A stretch of DNA of 61,797 nucleotides from positions 1-61,797 of the forward strand of contig DCHO01000049.1 in assembly GCA_002315655.1 (NCBI GenBank), read 5' to 3'. The stretch is from Christensenella sp. UBA1750. Its GTDB lineage: Bacteria; Bacillota; Clostridia; Christensenellales; UBA1750. The notes below the pieces were generated by a model. The model made no database searches and was not told the origin of the DNA. It saw only the letters and a list, made by a program, of their open reading frames with translations. The position numbers were made by a program, and so were the translations under genes. Position 1 is the stretch's first letter. Each line of letters starts with the position of its first letter. Shown piece by piece: positions 9,532 through 43,421 of this stretch.

Positions 9532-9702
9532 ATGGCATTCAAGATTTCTGATGCTTGCATCATGTGCGGTGCCTGCGCCGCTGACTGCCCCGTTTCCGCC
9601 ATCTCTGAAGGCGACGGCAAGTTCGTCATCGATCCCGACACCTGCATCAGCTGCGGCGCCTGCGCCGGCACCTGCCCCGTTGGTGCTCCCGCTGAGGAGT
9701 AA
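9532..9702 (+). CDS. fdx: 2[4Fe-4S] clostridial-type ferredoxin
   Basis: Two CxxCxxCxxxCP motifs in 56 aa; GGAGG RBS. Confidence 0.95.
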   Translation: MAFKISDACIMCGACAADCPVSAISEGDGKFVIDPDTCISCGACAGTCPVGAPAEE

Positions 9703-9719
9703 TTTTTCGGGTAACATCA

Positions 9720-9772
9720 AAGACCTTTGCTTTTCGTGTGCGTTCACAAAAAGCAAAGGTCTTATTCTTTTT
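9720..9772 (+). terminator. Rho-independent terminator
   Basis: AAGACCTTTGCTTT...AAAGCAAAGGTCTT then ATTCTTTTT. Confidence 0.8.
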
Positions 9773-9844
9773 ACAAATTATGGAAAAACAGGAGATAAAC
9801 CGTCTCCTGATTGTAAATATTTTTTGTCTATTTGTATATCGGGT

Positions 9845-9873
9845 TTGACCGCATGGGGGAAGTATGGTAAAAT
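9845..9873 (+). promoter_or_regulatory. Sigma-A type promoter
   Basis: TTGACC-17nt-TAAAAT with extended TG. Confidence 0.65.
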
Positions 9874-9974
9874 AGAAAACAAAATAGGGATTTTCGGAAC
9901 ATTTTTGTCCCTGTATCGTTTACAGTACAAAGTCAGCATACAGATAGAAAAGCTGTGATCAAAGGAGGATTCCC

Positions 9975-12900
9975 GTGAAGAAAAAAATCGTTTCGTTGTT
10001 GTTATCCGTGATTATACTGGTCGTGACGATCGCCATGTGGGTCCCGGGCGTTTCCGCCTCCACAAACGGCATGATTCGCGTCTGGCTCAAATCCATGGAT
10101 TATGACGGAAGCATTTATTCCACCTCCGTCACCCTTTCGGGCTCCTATTCCGTGCCCTCCAATCAGGACATTCAGTTGACCACAAGAGGAACCTATTCCG
10201 TCTCCGTTTCCACCTCGGGCACCCTGCTGCTCTCCGGCACGGGGATCGACACCCCAGTGGACATGGGCACCTCCTTCACCATGAAGACCCACGCCAATGA
10301 CGACGGCTCCATCGGCACCATTTCTTTATATAACACCAAGTACGGCAACCGCGCCTACCGCGGAGATATGCTCTTTATGGTCAACAACGGTGCGCTGCGT
10401 CTCATCAACACCGTCTATATTGAGGATTATCTCTACGGCGTGCTGGCGGGCGAGCTCTCCAACACCTTCCCGCTGGAGACCCTGAAAGCGCAGGCGATCA
10501 TTGCCCGTTCCTATGCCTACAACAAGATGCAGAACGGTTCCTCGTCCTACGACATTACCGACTGCTCCGACTGTCAGGTGTACAAGGGCTACAATTCCTC
10601 CAATGATGTCATCATCAACGCAGTGGATTCCACTGCGGGCATTCTGCTCAAATATGACGGCAGCGTGGTCAACGCCTATTTCAGCGCCTCCAACGGCGGT
10701 CAGGTGGAATTGCCCGGCAATGCCTGGTCATCGTCCACTTCTTTGGGTTGCTATGTCATGAAGGACGATTCCTACGACCTGAACAATGTTTCTTCGAGAA
10801 TCGTCACCTACACCTTCTCGTCCTCTCCCGATTCGTTGGATTCCTCTCTCTATGCGCTGATTCAGGGAAAGGTCTATACCATGCTCGGCTCTTATCCGAC
10901 CATCCTTTCCATTGACGCGGTAACGCTTTCTGACCCCATCCAGACCGACAAGCGTTCTGTCGGCATTTCCCGCAACTATCAGACCATGAACATGACCCTG
11001 ACCGTACAGGGAACGCAGACCGTCTTTGACGGAACCCAGAGCAGTAATTACGGGGATGCCCAGCAGGTCAACATTTCATTGAGCCTTCACGATGAGGTCA
11101 AATATACCGTTTTCAGCGCCGATTCCGACCTGCGCTTCTTCGCTCTGGAGCAGTCCGGCTCTTACTATTATCTGACCTTAGCCAGATACGGCCACGGCGT
11201 CGGGATGTCCCAGCGCGGCGCACAGCAGATGGCCAAAGAAGGCATGACCTACAAGCAGATCATTAACTTCTATTTTAACGATTGCTCGCTGCCCACCGTG
11301 TCCTTTACCAAGGATGCCCTGACAAAGTATGTGCCCCTTCCTTCCAGCCCCATCGGAACGGCGGAGATCACCGCCTCGTCCCTGACCGTTCGAGCTGAAC
11401 CCAGCACTTCCGCTACCAAGCTCGGCTCACTGACCAAGGGCAGCGTTGTGGATGTTTATGCCAATGACGGCTCCTGGCTCACAGTCGTTTACAACGGCAC
11501 CGTCGCCTATATCAGCGCAAGCTATGCCAACTATACCGATGGTTCCGGTACCGGCTCTTTAGGCGTCGGCACGGAAGGTGTTGCTGCCTCCGCCAGCCCC
11601 ACAGCCTCCAATTCCGCAGAGCTGCTGGCCTCCGGCGACGGCACGGCTACCGTTACCTTAAAGAGTGCTTCTTCTACCTTGAAGCTCCGCTCCACAGCCT
11701 CTTCCTCCGGTTCGGTGATCACCAATGTACCCAACGGCACCGTCGTGACCGTTCTTGCCAAGGGGACGGAGTGGACGCAGGTGATGCTTGCCAACGGCAC
11801 CAAGGGCTATATGGCGACCTCTTACTTGACCTTCAATTCCTCTACGGCCACGGAGACCGCTTCCGCAACCGCGACTGCGACGGCGACCGCCACGGCTGCT
11901 TCCGAGGACACCGTTGTGGCTTACGGCCTTATCACCGGCTCCTCCGTCAACGTGCGCTCCGGCCCTTCCACCAGCGCTTCCAAGGTCGGTTCTCTGCTCA
12001 AAGGCTCTGCCGTTGCCATCATTTCCCAGAACAACGGCTTCTATAAGATCAAGTACAACAACGGCACGGCGTATGTTTCTTCCTCCTACGTCAACGTGAC
12101 AGGAACCGCAAACACCGCAACGCCTGCGCCCTCCGCTTCCGTATCGCCTTCGCCCACACCCACCGCGTTTGTGACTCAGACTCTGATGGTCACGGCGGAC
12201 TATGTGATCGTGGCGGCGGCACCCGGCGGCAATGTCGGCTATGAACAGTGGCCCAAGGGCACGGTTGCCAATATCTTAGGGGAGAGCGGTGACTATTACA
12301 TCGTGTATTCCTCCGCCGGACAGTGCAACGGCTATGTGCCCAAATCCGGGTTCGGAACGGTGAGTGCCGAGCCGACCCAGACCATTCCCGCCGGCAGCAC
12401 CTACATCTCCGCCACATCGGCTTACCTGTATTCCTCTCCCGGAAGCAGTGTGAGAAACGCGGAGTTGTCTTACGGCACCGTTGTCACCATCCAAGGCGAG
12501 AGCGGGGATTACTACTATGTGTATGTAGCTTCCGAGAAGGAATATGGCTATGTGATCAAGTCCTCCGTCTCCACCGCATCCGCAGCGCCGACGGCGACGA
12601 CCAGCCCCTCCGGCACCACTTCCGCAGGAACCATCAAGCTGTCTTCTTCGAGCTCCACGCTCAATATGCGCGCTTCCGCCAGCACTTCTTCCGCCGTTGT
12701 GACCACCTTGAAGAACGGCGCTTCCGTCACCATCACAGGGGAGTCCGGCGACTGGTATGCCATCACCTATGGCAATTACAGCGGCTATGTCATGAAGAAG
12801 TATGTGACCACCGGGTCTTCCTCCGACACAGGCACGTCTTCTTCCAGCGGGAAATATCCTGCGACCATCAGACTGGCTTCCGCCACCTCCACGGTCAATG

Positions 12901-36770: not shown

Positions 36771-36793
36771 ATATAAAGAATTTGGAGGATAAA

Positions 36794-37453
36794 ATGATGA
36801 AAGTTTTGCTTGTCTGTGATGATTTGTGGCATCCCGCTGAGGTGATCGAGCGCGGAATCAGCACCATGGATGCGGAGGAAATGGAATTTGACGTGGTGAA
36901 AACGGCAAAGGACATCCTTTCGCCCGAATTTGTCAAGCGGTACGATGTGCTGGTGAACTGCCACGGCGGTTCCATCAACGCTTCCAACAGCAACCCCTGG
37001 TTTGAGCCCACCGTAACCGAGTTCGGCCCCGAGGAGTTCCGGGACTATGTGGCGCAGGGCGGCGCACTTGTGGTGGTGCATTCCGGCCTCACCATCGGCG
37101 GCAGAAACCATCCCGAACCTGCCTATACCGAGGTGGTGGGCAGCTATTTCTTAGGCCACCCGCTGCGGTGCATGACGCACGTTAGCATCACCAAGGAAAA
37201 CGAGATCACTAAGGGCGTGGAAAACTTCTCCGAGCGGGACGAGCATTACCAGATCGCCGTCACGGCCAAGGACGCGGAGCCCTTCATGGAGACCACCTCC
37301 GCGCAGGGCGGTACCTTTATCAGCGGCTACACAAGAACTTACGGCAATGGCCGCGTGGCAGTCCTCACCCCCGGGCACACCCTTGCGGTGTGGGAAAATC
37401 CCAACTTCCGGAAGCTCTTCAAAAACGCAATTCGCTGGGCTGCCGGAAAGTAA
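36794..37453 (+). CDS. ThuA-like (trehalose utilization/GATase1-like) domain protein
   Basis: DDLWHP, GGALVVVHSG, FLGHP, DEHY, GNGRVAVLTPGH, AIRWAAG. Confidence 0.8.
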   Translation: MMKVLLVCDDLWHPAEVIERGISTMDAEEMEFDVVKTAKDILSPEFVKRYDVLVNCHGGSINASNSNPWFEPTVTEFGPEEFRDYVAQGGALVVVHSGLTIGGRNHPEPAYTEVVGSYFLGHPLRCMTHVSITKENEITKGVENFSERDEHYQIAVTAKDAEPFMETTSAQGGTFISGYTRTYGNGRVAVLTPGHTLAVWENPNFRKLFKNAIRWAAGK

Positions 37454-37540: not shown

Positions 37541-38926
37541 TTATTTGCGCAAGCGGTTTTCAATCTCCGCCCAGATGTCTTCCCAGCTCATGCCCTGATC
37601 GACCAGCAGCACGGAAAGGTGGAACAGAAGGTCAGCAACCTCGAAGGAGAGGTTGGCTTTGTCGCCGTTCTTTGCGCCGATGAGCGCTTCGGCGGCTTCC
37701 TCGACCACCTTTTTGCCGATCTTGTCCGCGCCCTTGGAAAGCAGCATATTGGTGTAGGAGCCTTCCTTGGGGTTTTCCTTGCGGTCTAAGATGAGCTTGT
37801 ATTCTTCGATCAAGGCCTGCATCCCAAGAGTGGAGCTTCTGCCGCCGTCCAGCGTTTTTAAGCTGTTGAAGAAGCAGGAATAGCTGCCCGTGTGGCAGGC
37901 CGCGCCGTCCTGATCGACCTTGAGGAGGATGGTGTCGCCGTCGCAGTCGTAGCGGATCTCGCGGACGTGCTGGAAGCAGGAGGAAGTCTCGCCCTTGACC
38001 CAAAGCGCCTGACGGCTGCGGGAGAAATAGGTGGCAAGCCCGGTTTCCAGCGTCTTTTTGAGGGATTCCTCGTTCATGTAGGCAAGCATGAGCACCGTGC
38101 CTGTTTTCGCATCCTGCACAACGGCGGGAACCAAGCCTTTGTCATCGAACTTGATGCCGGATAAATCTACTTCGCCGCGAAACGTCGCAATCCCATTAGA
38201 CTCCAAAACCTCTTTGACCTGCGCAATCGAGAATTTTGCGGAATGGAAAACGGAGGCGGCCAGAACGCCCTTGGCTCCGGCGAGCTTTACGGCATCGACA
38301 AAGTGATTGAGTTCTCCCGCGCCGCCGGAAGCGGTGACAGGCAGGGGAGAGGCTTCGGCGGCGATTTTGGTGGCTTCCAGATCGTAGCCGGTCTTTGCGC
38401 CGTCCTGCATGGTGGTTAATAGGATTTCACCCGCGCCCCACTCGGCGAGCTGCTTGACCCATGGTGCGAGCAGTTTACCGGAAGGCGTCTGCCCGGCACC
38501 CATGACCTCGTATTCGCCGTTGGCGTTCTTGAACACGTCCACCAGCGCGGTGACGGCCTTGGGGCCGTATTTGTAGCTGGCGCGGCGGATAAGCTCGTCG
38601 TTGGTCAGGGACGCGGAGCCGATGCCCACCTTGGAAGCTCCCGCCTCCATGATGGCGTCCACATCGTCCAAAGAGGCGATGCCGCCGCCGATGCACAGCG
38701 GCACGGTGCAGATGGCCGCTGCCTTTTTGATCATTTCCAGATTGGTCTTGCGGCCTTCCTCGCTGGCCTTGATGTCCAGCATCCAGACCTCGTCCGCGCC
38801 TTCCTTGCAGTAGCGGGCGATGCACTCAGCGGGGTCACCCGCGTCGATCATACCTTTGAAGTGAACGCCCTTTACAATGCGGCCGTTCATCATATCGAGA
38901 CAAGGGACAACTTTGACAGGTTCCAT
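37541..38926 (-). CDS. hisF: Trifunctional HisF-HisI-HisE fusion (IGP synthase cyclase, PR-AMP cyclohydrolase, PR-ATP pyrophosphatase)
   Basis: VVPCLD...GAGEILLT...ASGGAG...LAASVFH (HisF); [14 protein letters not shown]...WVKGETS...DCDGD...ACHTG (HisI); SYT..L...KKVVEEAAE...EVADLLFH (HisE), one uninterrupted frame. Confidence 0.92.
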
Positions 38927-38930
38927 AAGA

Positions 38931-39644
38931 TTATTCCTCCTCTAAGGTAAGCGCATCGGAAAGTTTCACTTTACCGGAATACAGAGCCTTTCCGATAATA
39001 GCTCCGGCGCATCCGGCATTTTTAAGATCAATCAGATCCTGCAATGTTCCCACACCGCCGGAGCCGATGATGTTCATATTGGTATCTGCAATGAGCTGCT
39101 TTGTGGATTCCACATTGGGGCCCACCAGCATTCCGTCCCGGGAAATGTCCGTGTAGATAATGTCCGTGACCCCGAAGGCCTTCATTTTCAAGGCCAGGTC
39201 TTTTGCGGTGATGGTGGAGGTTTCCACCCAGCCCTTTACCGCGACCAGCCCGTTTTTGCAGTCGAGCCCCACGGCAATATGCCCGGGGAATTTCCTGCAC
39301 GCTTCCTCCACGATTTCAGGGTGATTGAGCGCCACGGTGCCCAAAATCACGCGCTGCACCCCGGCGCAGAGCCGCGCTTCGATGTCTTCCATCGTGCGGA
39401 TGCCGCCGCCGGTCTCCACGGGAAGCCCGGTCTGCTTGACGATTTCCTTCAAAATGGGCAGGTTGCGCCCGGAGCCTTCAAACGCGCCGTCCAGATCGAC
39501 AACGTGAAGATAGGTCGCACCCTGATTCTTCCAGTCCATTGCGGCGGCAACGGGGTCACCGTAGTCGGTGACGGCATTGGCTTCACCTTGGAGCAGGCGC
39601 ACCGCCTTGCCGTTTTTGATGTCTATTGCGGGATAAATTTGCAT
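38931..39644 (-). CDS. hisA: ProFAR isomerase
   Basis: [32 protein letters not shown]. Confidence 0.95.
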
Positions 39645-39653
39645 AATTTCTCC

Positions 39654-40235
39654 TTACAGTACACCCTTTGTGGAGGGGATGCCCTTCACACGGGGGTCGA
39701 TGGCCACGGCGGCCTTGAGTGCGCGGGCGTAGGCCTTGAACAGTCCCTCTGTAATGTGATGGCTGTTCTTGCCGTCGGCTTTCAGGTGCAGTGTGGTGCC
39801 GGAGGCCACTGCCACGGCGCGGAAAAATTCCTCCGTCAGCTCAGTTGCATAGTCGCCGCACATGGGCGCACCGAACTCCGCGTCAAAGCGGAGGAAGGGG
39901 CGGCCGGAAATGTCCAGCGCACAGAAGCACAGGGCTTCATCCATGGGCATCCAGCAGGAGCCGCAGCGCTCGAGGCCGGACTTGTCCCCCAAGGCAGAAG
40001 CGATCGCCTGTCCCAGCACAATGCCAGTGTCCTCGACGGTGTGGTGTCCGTCCACCTCCAAATCGCCCTTACAGGTGACAGTGAGGTCGAACAGTCCATG
40101 CCGGGCAAAGGCGGAAAGCATATGGTCGAAAAAGCCGATGCCGGTATTGATTTCGTATTTTCCTTCGCCGTCCAGATTTACGGAGACGGTGATTTCGGTT
40201 TCCCCGGTCTTGCGGGTAATCGTTGCTTGTCTCAT
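39654..40235 (-). CDS. hisB: Imidazoleglycerol-phosphate dehydratase (monofunctional)
   Basis: RKTGET, TGIGFFDHML, DGHHTVED, MDEAL, NSHHITE. Confidence 0.95.
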   Translation of the reverse strand: MRQATITRKTGETEITVSVNLDGEGKYEINTGIGFFDHMLSAFARHGLFDLTVTCKGDLEVDGHHTVEDTGIVLGQAIASALGDKSGLERCGSCWMPMDEALCFCALDISGRPFLRFDAEFGAPMCGDYATELTEEFFRAVAVASGTTLHLKADGKNSHHITEGLFKAYARALKAAVAIDPRVKGIPSTKGVL

Positions 40236-40237
40236 AA

Positions 40238-41527
40238 TCAATACTCCTCAAAGCGGATGGACGCGGAGCGGGCGTGGGCTTCCAGCTCCTCGGCTCTGGC
40301 AAAGCGGGCAATATCCTGATAGCTCTCCTTGAGCTTTTCCTCCGAATAGTAAACGATGGAGGACTTCTTGACGAAATCCATGACGCTCAAGGGGGAGAAG
40401 AAGCGGGCAGTGCCGGAGGTCGGCAGAACGTGGTTGGGTCCCGCGAAATAGTCGCCCAGCGGTTCTGGGGAATAGTGTCCCACAAAGATCGCGCCGGCAT
40501 TCTTCACCTTGTCGATGTGCGTGAAAGCATCGGAGAGCGACAGTTCCAGATGCTCCGGGGCAACGGCGTTGGCAAGGTCGAAGGCGGTTTGCAGATCATC
40601 CGCCACAAGGATGCAGCCGTTGGAATTGACCGATTTTTCCGCAATCTCCTTGCGGGGCAGGTTGTTTAGCTGTCTGTCCAGCTCAATGCGCACCTTCTCG
40701 GCCAAAGAAGCGGAGGTGGTGATGAGAATGGGCGCGGCCAGCGCGTCATGCTCGGCCTGTGAGAGCAGGTCGGCGGCAACGAACTTCGGTGTAGCGGAAT
40801 CTTCCGCGATGATGAGCACCTCGGAAGGCCCCGCGATCATGTCGATGCCGACCAGTCCGTACACCGCGCGCTTGGCGTTGGCCACATAGATGTTGCCGGG
40901 GCCAACGATCTTATCCACGGGCTTGATGGACTGGGTGCCGTAAGCAAGCGCGGCAATGGCCTGTGCGCCGCCGCACTTGTAGATTTCCGTTACGCCGCAA
41001 AGATCAGCGGCGATCAGCATACAGGGATTGACCTTTCCGTCCGCGCCGGGCGGGGTCATCATGACGATGCGGGAGACCCCGGCGACCTTGGCGGGGAGCA
41101 CGTTCATGAGCACGGAGGAGGACAGCGGTGCGGTGCCGCCGGGAACATACACGCCCACGTTTGCAATGGGGCGGATGAGCTGCCCCAGCGCGGAGCCTTC
41201 CTGATAGTCAATCCACGATTTCTCTTTTTGCTTCTCGTGGAAGGCGGTGATGTTGTCGCGGGACTTGGTCATGCTGGCAACCAGCTCGGAAGAAACCATG
41301 GAATAGGCTTCCTGAATTTCCTCGGGCGTGACTTTCAGGGTTTCCTTGGTCAGTTCCGCTTTGTCAAATTTCTTGGTCAGCTCGATTAAGGCGTCATCGC
41401 CCTCTGTGCGAACCTTCTGAATGATCTCGTTGACCGCGGCAGTCACATCTTTCTGCGTTAATTGCGAGCGCAGTTTCAGCTTGTCCGGCAGGCCTTCGCC
41501 GCGCTTGATGTTGAAAATATCAATCAT
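40238..41527 (-). CDS. hisD: Histidinol dehydrogenase
   Basis: GVYVPGG, GGAQAIAALAYG, GPGNIYV, IDMIAGPSE, DLLSQAEHD, GPNHVLPT. Confidence 0.96.
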   Translation of the reverse strand: MIDIFNIKRGEGLPDKLKLRSQLTQKDVTAAVNEIIQKVRTEGDDALIELTKKFDKAELTKETLKVTPEEIQEAYSMVSSELVASMTKSRDNITAFHEKQKEKSWIDYQEGSALGQLIRPIANVGVYVPGGTAPLSSSVLMNVLPAKVAGVSRIVMMTPPGADGKVNPCMLIAADLCGVTEIYKCGGAQAIAALAYGTQSIKPVDKIVGPGNIYVANAKRAVYGLVGIDMIAGPSEVLIIAEDSATPKFVAADLLSQAEHDALAAPILITTSASLAEKVRIELDRQLNNLPRKEIAEKSVNSNGCILVADDLQTAFDLANAVAPEHLELSLSDAFTHIDKVKNAGAIFVGHYSPEPLGDYFAGPNHVLPTSGTARFFSPLSVMDFVKKSSIVYYSEEKLKESYQDIARFARAEELEAHARSASIRFEEY

Positions 41528-42167
41528 GGTCGTTGCTCCTTTTCTCAATCTGTTCTTTCAGCCCTTCAATGAGCGGGCGAATCTGGCTCTCCTTGGTTTT
41601 GAGGCTCACACGGTTGACCACCAGCCGCGCTGAGCAGGTGCAGATTTCTTCCAAGATAGAAAGCCCGTTGGCGTGAAGAGTCGCGCCGCTTTCCACAATG
41701 TCCAAAATCACATCGGAAAGCCCGATGACGGGACCCAATTCCACAGAGCCGTTCAATTTGATGATCTCGATGGAGGAGCCTCTTGTGGAAAAGACCTGCG
41801 AGGCAATGCCGGTGTATTTGGTGGCCACGCGGATGTGCGCGTTTTTTAGGGGTTCTTTTTCGGCATATCCTGCAATGCAGATGCGGCAGGTGCCGAAGCC
41901 CAAGTCCAGCATTTCGTAAAGGGGGCGGTTTTCCTCCATCAGCGTGTCCTTGCCCACGATGCCCACATCCGCAACGCCGTGATCGACGTAGGTTGGCACA
42001 TCGGAGGGCTTGACCATGATGAAGCGATAGGAATGGTCGCCGGAATAGAACACCAGTTTGCGGCTCTTTTCCTTTAAGGCGGAAACATCAACGCCCATGT
42101 TTTCCAGCAGGGTCAGTGTTTCGTCCGCCAAGCGGCCTTTCGCCATCGCAATGGTGATGGGCTCCAT
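41520..42167 (-). CDS. hisG: ATP phosphoribosyltransferase, short form
   Basis: IAMAKGRL, DVPTYV, GIVGKDTL, KLNGSVEL, DIVESGATL. Confidence 0.95.
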   Translation of the reverse strand: MEPITIAMAKGRLADETLTLLENMGVDVSALKEKSRKLVFYSGDHSYRFIMVKPSDVPTYVDHGVADVGIVGKDTLMEENRPLYEMLDLGFGTCRICIAGYAEKEPLKNAHIRVATKYTGIASQVFSTRGSSIEIIKLNGSVELGPVIGLSDVILDIVESGATLHANGLSILEEICTCSARLVVNRVSLKTKESQIRPLIEGLKEQIEKRSNDHD

Positions 42168-43337
42168 TTATTCCACCTCCCGCAAGACCAATCCCGGGTG
42201 TCGGGCGGTCAAGAGATTCTGTATCTTTTCTTCGTCGGTCTCAAAGACCAGTTCCACGGTCTTTCCCGCTGCCCTTAAACTCTGCGCCGCGGAGAAGGTT
42301 CTGGAAAGCTCCTGTTTTCCGGCTAAAATGAGCACATCCACAGAAACACCGCTTTCCTTTGGCGCATCCAGCGCTTCCAGCAGACATTCCAGATTCATGG
42401 CAAAGCCGACGGCACTCATGGGGCGCCCGAACTGGGAAAGCAGTTCGTCATACCGTCCGCCGGACAGCAGCGGCTGCCCCAAGGAGGCGGAAATGCCCTG
42501 AAAGATCATGCCGGTGTAGTAGCCGATGGAATGAACCATGCCTAAATCAATGGAAATATGCTCGGCATAGCCGCAGGAACAGACCATATCGTAAATGGTG
42601 CCGAGATTGCGAAGCGCGGACAGGCACTTGGGATAATCCGTGAGCTTTGCGGCTTTTTCCAGCACGTCCCTGCCGCCGAAGAGCATCGGCAGCTCGCGGA
42701 TGCGGGAGGAGACGGCTTCCTTTTCCCCACTGCCGGAGAGCAGCAGGTCGATGGCCAGCATATTTTTTTCCTCCACGAAGGAGCGCACCTTTTCGGCGGT
42801 CTCGGAATCCAGCCCCGCTTCCTCCATGAGCCCCTTGAAGAAATCCACCTGACCGATCTCGATCATATAATTGGAAAGCCCCGCGTTCTTCATGGCTTCC
42901 AGTGCCAGCAGAACGGCTTCCGCGTCGGATTTGGGATCGTCACAGCCCAGCAGCTCGATGCCCGCCTGGGTAAATTCCGCCTGTTTTTTCGCGCTCTTGT
43001 CCTTGGGGTCGGCGTAGGCCGAACCGATGTAGCAGATGCGCAGCGGGGGAACTTCGGAGAGCAGCTTTGTGGCGGCAATGCGGGCGATGGCGGTGGTGAA
43101 GTCCGGGCGAAGCACCAGAATGCGTCCGGTGTGGTCTAATGTCTTGATCATGTCCTCCTGCGCGTGGGCGCCAATGCCGGAGGCGTAGGTATCGTAATAT
43201 TCCAGCCCGGCAGGGGAGACTTCCCGATAACCGAAGGAGAGGAACTGATTGCGCAGTGTGCCTTCCAGCGCGATTTTGCGGGCGCAGTCGTCCATCAGGA
43301 GATCCTGCACGTTCTTGGGCAGTTGAGGCGTTGTCAT
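42168..43337 (-). CDS. hisZ: ATP phosphoribosyltransferase regulatory subunit
   Basis: LVLRPDFT..IAR, EFTQAGIEL, YYTGMIF, GGRYD, AVGFA. Confidence 0.93.
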   Translation of the reverse strand: MTTPQLPKNVQDLLMDDCARKIALEGTLRNQFLSFGYREVSPAGLEYYDTYASGIGAHAQEDMIKTLDHTGRILVLRPDFTTAIARIAATKLLSEVPPLRICYIGSAYADPKDKSAKKQAEFTQAGIELLGCDDPKSDAEAVLLALEAMKNAGLSNYMIEIGQVDFFKGLMEEAGLDSETAEKVRSFVEEKNMLAIDLLLSGSGEKEAVSSRIRELPMLFGGRDVLEKAAKLTDYPKCLSALRNLGTIYDMVCSCGYAEHISIDLGMVHSIGYYTGMIFQGISASLGQPLLSGGRYDELLSQFGRPMSAVGFAMNLECLLEALDAPKESGVSVDVLILAGKQELSRTFSAAQSLRAAGKTVELVFETDEEKIQNLLTARHPGLVLREVE

Positions 43338-43392: not shown

Positions 43393-43421
43393 ATTATAAT
43401 AAAAGAGGTTTTATCTGTCAA
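43393..43421 (-). promoter_or_regulatory. Consensus sigma-A promoter of the his operon
   Basis: TTGACA-17nt-TATAAT on the minus strand. Confidence 0.85.

Follow-up and report, generated by a model that had tools for sequence, protein, structure and literature searches.

Imidazole glycerol phosphate (IGP) synthase, the enzyme of step 5 of histidine biosynthesis, is the textbook model of ammonia channelling and of long-range allostery between a glutaminase (HisH) and a synthase (HisF). In vitro, isolated HisF of E. coli can carry out the reaction with ammonia, and D98 of HisF is needed for HisH glutaminase activity. In the activated complex this residue (fD98) shifts toward HisH and contacts hN12 (PMC8115485), and fQ123 belongs to a network that reaches hV51 and hG52 of the HisH oxyanion strand (bioRxiv 10.1101/2021.10.21.464958). 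Here we analyze a his operon of Christensenella sp. UBA1750 (assembly GCA_002315655.1, contig DCHO01000049.1, the whole 61,797-nt stretch being referred to as the window) that contains no hisH and that encodes a HisF domain fused to HisIE. This domain, and the clade to which it belongs, are termed HisF*.

Histidine synthesis without HisH has been obtained in the laboratory. C. glutamicum remains prototrophic when hisH is deleted, and E. coli hisH mutants are complemented by the hisF of this species, as mentioned under unpublished observations in PMC3896937. In E. coli, amplification of the his operon suppresses a hisH deletion, an effect for which hisF is strictly required; rescue of the deletion by multicopy hisF is also cited there (PMC13540730). 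In these mutants, as proposed here, the cell makes histidine with HisF as its only IGP synthase subunit, presumably with ammonia as the nitrogen source, and by analogy they render HisF-only ammonia chemistry in vivo plausible. Both species, however, still encode a functional HisH and an interface-intact HisF, whereas the lineages described below have naturally dispensed with hisH and their interface drifts.

HisF-HisI-HisE fusions, with the same three-domain architecture as HisF*-HisIE, have been noted (PMC9413887) and are common in Thermoanaerobaculia and others. The WbuZ/AglZ "HisF2" glycan-amidation paralogs are likewise HisF-like barrels, but they work with a dedicated HisH2 and are encoded in glycan loci, whereas HisF* sits in the his operon. 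Several glutamine amidotransferases have ammonia-dependent counterparts, such as AsnA versus AsnB, the NH3-dependent NadE, and TrpE acting alone with ammonia. The same logic would apply here: a glutaminase-free synthase is used where ammonia is plentiful, sometimes beside a glutamine-dependent form. The HisF fold, its reaction, its in vitro activity with ammonia and the HisF-I-E fusion are thus already known. In the literature searched, we found no description of a natural hisH-less IGP synthase with a selected pathway, of a HisF clade without the HisH interface, or of a glnA-linked hisHF pair that coexists with such a paralog and undergoes reciprocal loss with it.

Absence of hisH and replacement of the HisH-contacting residues

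The initial annotation had proposed a glutaminase-free histidine pathway, with the order hisZ-G-D-B-A-F/I/E, a 9-bp hisB-hisA gap carrying only a ribosome-binding site, and neither hisH nor hisC in the operon. Open reading frames (ORFs) and family models gave the same minus-strand order, hisZ-G-D-B-A-hisF/hisIE, and the same gap (GGAGAAATT, with GGAG; Table 1). In canonical Firmicute operons the hisB-hisA spacer is the hisH slot, and canonical relatives read hisB-hisH-hisA. A genome search located hisC on another contig (C31:5976-7010; 278.7 bits vs. a cut-off of 276.55) and a hisJ-family histidinol phosphatase gene at C81:440-1159 (96.6 bits vs. a cut-off of 90.2), so that HisH is the sole missing pathway function.

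The genome is a 2.65-Mb draft in 83 contigs, estimated to be 93.4% complete. A search with the TIGR01855 (HisH) profile returned zero matches at E≤0.01 in this genome, and 14 of 14 control genomes were positive. A custom HisH hidden Markov model (HMM), built from 39 relatives and run unfiltered over all open frames, had as its sole match a peptidase-C26-type amidotransferase (C67:7804-8502, E=0.002). This protein has a Cys/His motif, but it scored 21.5 bits against a cut-off of 105.4 and is unlinked to the his genes, and it is considered below only as a minor alternative. Canonical hisF was likewise absent, leaving HisF* as the only HisF of the genome; the hisH gene that a heterodimeric HisF-HisH amidotransferase calls for was not found in it.

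The HisF* domain aligned residue for residue with Thermotoga maritima HisF over positions 5-246, with no indel before residue 130, so the colinear numbering adopted in the initial annotation holds. Its matches to HisF structures in the PDB had E values of 1e-54 to 1e-69, and it scored 200 bits with Pfam PF00977 (cut-off 23.6). TIGR00735 (HisF) was the best match for the domain but, at 233.4 bits, lay under its cut-off of 294.55. The scores with the WbuZ/AglZ-HisF2 models were 193.1 bits (cut-off 299.7) and 177.3 bits (cut-off 310), both below the level for membership. Assignment of the domain to HisA was discarded because a bona fide hisA precedes the fusion gene and the HisA model gave 103 bits vs. 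233 for HisF. The gene stands directly after hisA in the his operon, as expected of hisF, and its product would act after HisA in the pathway, as in heterodimeric enzymes.

An AlphaFold model based on 38 sequences (mean pLDDT 89.3) had eight strand-helix units, a (beta-alpha)8 barrel. Foldseek matched it to 4EVZ, 1THF and 1GPW with TM scores of 0.89-0.92, hence a fold like that of the HisF of heterodimeric enzymes (T. maritima 1GPW/7AC8; E. coli). The relative orientation of HisF* and HisIE is undefined by the model (pTM 0.57).

As in heterodimeric enzymes, D11 (38894-38896), K19, D130 (38537-38539) and D176 are kept, together with the gate residues E46, K99 and E167, and with G81-G82, G177, G203, G205, A224 and S225, which complete the catalytic and phosphate-binding set. 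The residues that activate or contact HisH are replaced: positions 4 and 5 read V4 K5 (38912-38917) in place of K4/R5, D98 is Ser (38633-38635), Q123 is Lys (38558-38560) and position 124 is Ala. The initial annotation had reported the intact D11 and D130 as well as the changes at 4-5, 98 and 123, and each of its codon coordinates proved correct. Four further changes, W48 (38783-38785), C78 (38693-38695), G101 (38624-38626) and G103 (38618-38620), fall at barrel positions that are predicted from strand-residue alternation to face inward, along the channel of the heterodimeric enzymes (V48W, T78C, S101G, N103G).

To judge these substitutions, HisF* was compared with 55 canonical HisH-partnered HisFs, in which K4, R5, D/E98, K99, S101, N103, S122, Q123 and C124 are near-invariant. 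D/E98 and Q123 are both retained in 54 of the 55, so that S98 and K123 are not chance variation. The 27 distinct HisF* sequences vary at these sites, with S, A, R, K or T at position 98, N, A, E, G, S, K or Q at 123, A in most cases at 124, and mostly V/I and then K at 4-5. The phosphate-binding and catalytic set is invariant in the clade, and invariant positions include D11, K19, D51, G81, G82, D130, G145, D176, G177, S201, G203, G205 and A224. Fixed changes are V48W (or C), T78C, S101G, N103G (Gly as in HisA), A117S, G144A, R146Q and a one-residue deletion at D174. The hypervariability of positions 98, 123 and 124 suggests released constraint, with no sign of a new conserved interface.

The nonsynonymous to synonymous rate ratio (dN/dS) was calculated against a 94%-identical relative with the same operon (metagenome contig L164). 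HisF* had the lowest value of the operon (0.029), compared with 0.055 for hisB, 0.068 for HisIE, 0.074 for hisD, 0.079 for hisG and ∼0.10 for hisZ and hisA. In species that carry both systems (see below), dN/dS was 0.07-0.16 for HisF*, 0.10-0.20 for canonical HisF and 0.19-0.26 for HisH. HisF* is under very strong purifying selection and, in the species with both systems, is at least as constrained as canonical HisF and HisH.

Two HisF paralogs in the family and the pattern across the order

In a family sample of 20 species representatives, hisH was present in five of seven congeners (G001, G002, G003, G005 and G007), outside the his operon. All five share the hisZGDBA-hisF/IE operon, and their fusion proteins are 72-80% identical to the one encoded here. 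They also have hisH and a second hisF as a pair at another locus; this unfused HisF is just ∼40% identical to the HisF* domain of the present genome. In four of them (all but G005) the pair lies downstream of glnA on the same strand, followed by an LCP (LytR-CpsA-Psr) gene; an ANTAR-domain gene stands between glnA and hisH in G002, and an ORF is similarly placed in G001. This arrangement suggests nitrogen-regulated co-expression of glutamine synthetase and a glutamine-dependent IGP synthase. The glnA-hisH gap of G007 is 50 bp long and contains a GC-rich hairpin.

In this genome, glnA (C50:6469-7821), an ORF for a 209-aa membrane protein and the LCP gene (∼9536-10792) follow one another on a single 198-kb contig, and no remnant of hisH, hisF or the ANTAR gene was found in the 1.7-kb glnA-LCP gap. 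Because the glnA-LCP span is unbroken on one contig, the hisHF pair is absent from its ancestral site and was not lost to a contig break. The empty syntenic site and the HMM searches both bear out the claim that hisH is missing.

In a maximum likelihood tree, HisF* formed one clade on a long stem (SH-aLRT 99), and the HisH-linked HisFs of the family formed another (99). Both paralogs are thus old in the family. Six genomes have both systems (the five congeners and G019); three, including this genome, have HisF* only and no hisH (G000, the present one, G008 and G012); and G011 and G018 have hisHF only, their HisF* domain being shortened and devoid of D11 and D130. One genus (g6) shows all three states. 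Such reciprocal loss is what one would expect if each system were sufficient by itself for step 5. The initial annotation was therefore right that the HisH-contact residues are gone, but this loss did not come after the loss of hisH in this genome: the interface was shed in an old HisIE-fused paralog while a canonical hisH-hisF pair coexisted with it, and this genome then lost the pair. Two further members of the genus, G004 and G006, have no hisH, HisF* or HisIE and are apparent histidine auxotrophs, although the rest of the genus retains one or both IGP synthase systems.

The survey was extended to 401 genomes of the order, almost all with a completeness of 90% or more; hisH was present in 222 and absent from 179. 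When hisF was searched in 160 of the 162 newly sampled hisH-less genomes it was found in 10, which with seven found earlier makes 17 genomes of the order with hisF and no hisH, and 18 with an Oscillospiraceae metagenome-assembled genome (L087). Most of the 17 carry hisB-hisA-hisF-hisIE without a hisH slot. About 160 of the 179 hisH-less genomes are apparent auxotrophs; because hisF was also absent from most of the remaining hisH-less genomes searched, auxotrophs appear to lose the pathway whole rather than hisH alone.

All 18 hisH-less HisFs keep the catalytic set. D98 and Q123 are both lost in 10 of them (G000, G008, G012, G014, G149, G156, G137, G242, G416 and G374, the last with a HisF that is fused to HisIE, scores below the family cut-off and has lost the gate residues too), and Q123 alone is lost in two (G052 and G076). 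One or both residues are thus lost in 12 of 18 hisH-less HisFs but in only 1 of 55 HisH-partnered ones (Fisher's exact test, p=1.2e-8; p=1e-5 when non-partner HisF* copies are counted against the association). That loss of D98/Q123 should track the absence of hisH was the comparative check put forward in the initial annotation, and it came out positive.

Which HisF residues are released together with HisH was then read from 98 canonical positions conserved at ≥85%, scanned in the nine other hisH-less HisFs with lost D98/Q123. The least retained were Q123 (0%), C124 (11%), D98 (22%) and R146 (22%), against a mean of 85%, and the same four positions were retained in 0-4% of HisF* sequences. The relaxation is thus targeted, being restricted to HisH-contact positions. 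Residue 146 may therefore be an unrecognised HisH-coupling residue, since it behaves like D98, Q123 and C124. It is Arg or Lys in 95% of HisH-partnered HisFs and Gln in 27 of 27 HisF* sequences (here near 38489-38491).

Four more metagenomic HisF-IE lineages with lost D98/Q123 (P0033, P0035, P0036 and P0029) have hisB-hisA-hisF/IE operons without a hisH slot, and in two of them the first gene belongs to the TrpR family, as does the gene of the HisR repressor described in PMC9413887. The HisIE fusion itself was considered as the cause of interface loss and rejected: most HisF-IE fusions (e.g., those of Thermoanaerobaculia) keep D98, Q123 and C124, in hisH-bearing operons, the exceptions being the HisF* clade and a small number of further fusion lineages.

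A proposed HisH-independent IGP cyclase and its alternatives

We propose, with a probability of roughly 0.65, that HisF* is a HisH-independent, ammonia-using IGP cyclase. The HisF* domain of the 461-aa HisF*-HisIE protein would be the only IGP cyclase of the genome and would work without a glutaminase subunit, converting N'-[(5'-phosphoribulosyl)formimino]-5-aminoimidazole-4-carboxamide ribonucleotide (PRFAR) and free NH3 into IGP and 5-aminoimidazole-4-carboxamide ribonucleotide (AICAR); the fused HisIE would perform steps 2 and 3. Cyclase activity on PRFAR is suggested by the completeness of the pathway and by purifying selection. The V48W, T78C, S101G and N103G changes would remodel, and perhaps plug, the old ammonia channel, with Trp48 filling the space freed by the two glycines (101 and 103), and NH3 would enter from the active-site face.

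Several points weigh against this proposal. Free ammonia is reached as the probable nitrogen donor by elimination, and an ammonia-rich niche is presumed; at neutral pH, ammonia is a poor substrate for canonical HisF (Klem and Davisson, 1993, quoted in PMC3896937). The N103G, G144A, R146Q and D174-deletion changes lie near the active site and, with the sub-cut-off TIGR00735 score, make an altered chemistry possible. The association with hisH absence is not absolute, because 6 of the 18 hisH-less HisFs keep both D98 and Q123, although some of these may be assembly gaps. The tree requires a minimum of 7 changes of residue state and a minimum of 12 of hisH presence. Among phylogenetically independent contrasts, 4-5 were concordant and typically none was discordant, a number that leaves the sign test underpowered (p ∼0.06-0.125). 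Lastly, the genome is an incomplete draft in which a relocated hisHF copy could lie in unassembled DNA, and five of the six congeners with a his operon carry hisHF.

The alternative that survives best, although we consider it unlikely, is that the nitrogen comes from some other protein, which could be a distant class-I amidotransferase or else a glutaminase or amidase not related to HisH, and which would dock on HisF* or raise the local ammonia concentration. The poor use of free ammonia by canonical HisF and the gate residues retained in HisF* of this genus would fit such a partner, and the genome does encode the stand-alone C26-type class-I amidotransferase with a Cys/His motif described above. 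That protein is, however, unlinked to the his genes, and no conserved extra gene was found in or beside any hisH-less operon examined. A convergent ThuA-family ORF (PF06283) whose fold is class-I-amidotransferase-like faces the end of the his operon in the window, but it lies near the operon in no relative; its position was taken as a coincidence and the ORF was rejected as a surrogate glutaminase. The hypervariability of positions 98, 123 and 124 also makes it less likely that a new conserved partner binds where HisH used to dock.

A lower probability is given to the presence of hisH and a canonical hisF in the ∼6-7% of the genome that is unassembled or unbinned, in which case two systems would exist here as in the congeners. 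The draft state of the genome and the frequency of hisHF among congeners, already mentioned, speak for it. The congener hisHF site, however, lies inside the 198-kb contig here and is occupied by a different gene, with no remnant, and G008 and G012 (96-97% complete) independently show the HisF*-only state. Even if a hidden hisHF existed, HisF* would still be a paralog without a HisH interface under strong selection.

Least probable is that HisF* is not an IGP cyclase but a neofunctionalised or structural domain, in an organism that is auxotrophic or bypasses step 5 and whose operon is decaying: the degenerate domains of G011, G018 and Lachnospiraceae HisIE (see below), the sub-cut-off score and the many auxotrophs among hisH-less genomes of the order would agree with it, but HisF* keeps all catalytic and phosphate-binding residues and has the lowest dN/dS of an operon whose other his genes are intact and under selection, auxotrophs of the order drop the whole pathway, and the degenerate domains occur only where canonical hisHF exists.

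A wider proposal, which extends the HisH-independent cyclase to the family and perhaps to other anaerobic Clostridia, is more tentative, and we hold it to be doubtful as a whole. There would be two nitrogen-matched IGP synthase isozymes, one or the other being shed according to niche. In congeners with both systems, a monomeric, ammonia-using HisF*-HisIE would be made from the his operon for growth when ammonia is plentiful, and a glutamine-using HisH-HisF would be transcribed with glutamine synthetase (glnA-ANTAR-hisH-hisF) under nitrogen limitation. HisF*, with its channel filled by W48, would be an adapted stand-alone enzyme with NH3 kinetics better than those of canonical HisF, not a leftover subunit. 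If so, the glnA-linked paired isozymes would link histidine synthesis in gut anaerobes to their nitrogen status.

If HisF* is a HisH-independent cyclase, (i) it would provide an evolutionary read-out of the HisF residues that exist only for HisH, among which D98, Q123 and 124 were recovered without prior input and R146 would be a new candidate; (ii) the classical enzyme could be compared, in its channel and its kinetics with ammonia, with a cyclase that works alone in nature; and (iii) auxotrophy rules that require HisH (the histidine rule of PMC9026213; the GapMind hisH step) would presumably score these organisms as histidine auxotrophs.

Operon features and degenerate HisF domains

The features of the locus are collected in Table 1. 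The HisIE domain combines phosphoribosyl-AMP (PR-AMP) cyclohydrolase (PRA-CH) and phosphoribosyl-ATP (PR-ATP) diphosphatase (PRA-PH) and by its score and both domains is a bifunctional HisIE. The leader upstream of hisZ is only about 50 nt long, and no Rfam match to a leader, T-box or attenuator was obtained there; the promoter-like site that precedes it matches the sigma-70 consensus perfectly.

Table 1. Features of the his locus in the window and of the glnA-linked loci of congeners (window positions unless a locus is named).
Feature	Position	Strand	Evidence or remark
Terminator-like hairpin of upstream D,D-carboxypeptidase gene	43481-43454	-	directly precedes promoter-like site
Promoter-like site, TTGACA-17-TATAAT	43393-43421	-	12/12 matches; ∼55 nt upstream of hisZ
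hisZ, ATP phosphoribosyltransferase regulatory subunit	43337-42168	-	TIGR00443, 304 bits (cut-off 271.65)
hisG, short form	42167-41520	-	TIGR00070, 194 bits (cut-off 75.75)
hisD, histidinol dehydrogenase	41548-40238	-	TIGR00069, 552.7 bits (passes cut-off)
hisB, imidazoleglycerol-phosphate dehydratase	40241-39654	-	NF002111, 274 bits (cut-off 231)
hisB-hisA spacer, 9 bp, GGAGAAATT	39645-39653	-	GGAG ribosome-binding site inside
hisA, ProFAR isomerase	39644-38931	-	TIGR00007, 270.4 bits (cut-off 228.95)
hisF/hisIE fusion gene, 461 aa	38926-37541	-	starts 4 bp after hisA
HisF* domain, residues 1-250 of fusion	38177-38926	-	TIGR00735, 233.4 bits; PDB HisF matches
HisIE domain, residues 251-461 of fusion	37541-38176	-	NF002747, 251.3 bits (cut-off 187); PF01502 and PF01503
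ThuA-family ORF	36782-37453	+	PF06283
Congener glnA-hisH-hisF loci	L014 7272-10508; L015 7476-10694; L016 7122-9874; L017 4930-7885

Other arrangements were also seen. In G046 (L036 1945-3267), a 440-aa frame joins HisH and HisA within a hisB-(hisH/A)-hisF-hisIE operon, and the HisF of this genome is the only HisH-partnered one in which Q123 is replaced (Tyr). G032 (97% complete, no hisH) has a hisZ-G-D-A-IE operon in which neither hisB nor hisF was detected (L069, C12; L049, C4). Its solitary canonical hisF, located elsewhere, keeps D98 and Q123, which may reflect a recent loss or an assembly gap.

Many Lachnospiraceae HisIE proteins (L093-L149) begin with a strongly degenerate HisF remnant of ∼220 aa, for example in Enterocloster lavalensis (L124 9729-11039), Blautia caecimuris (L107) and a Dorea sp. 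(L133). With the exception of L114, all sampled genomes of this type carry hisH at another site. The remnant scores 40-85 bits, compared with 350-430 for a real HisF, only its first half aligns, D11 is replaced by Y, F or G, and D130 is lost; it is a conserved pseudo-enzyme domain.

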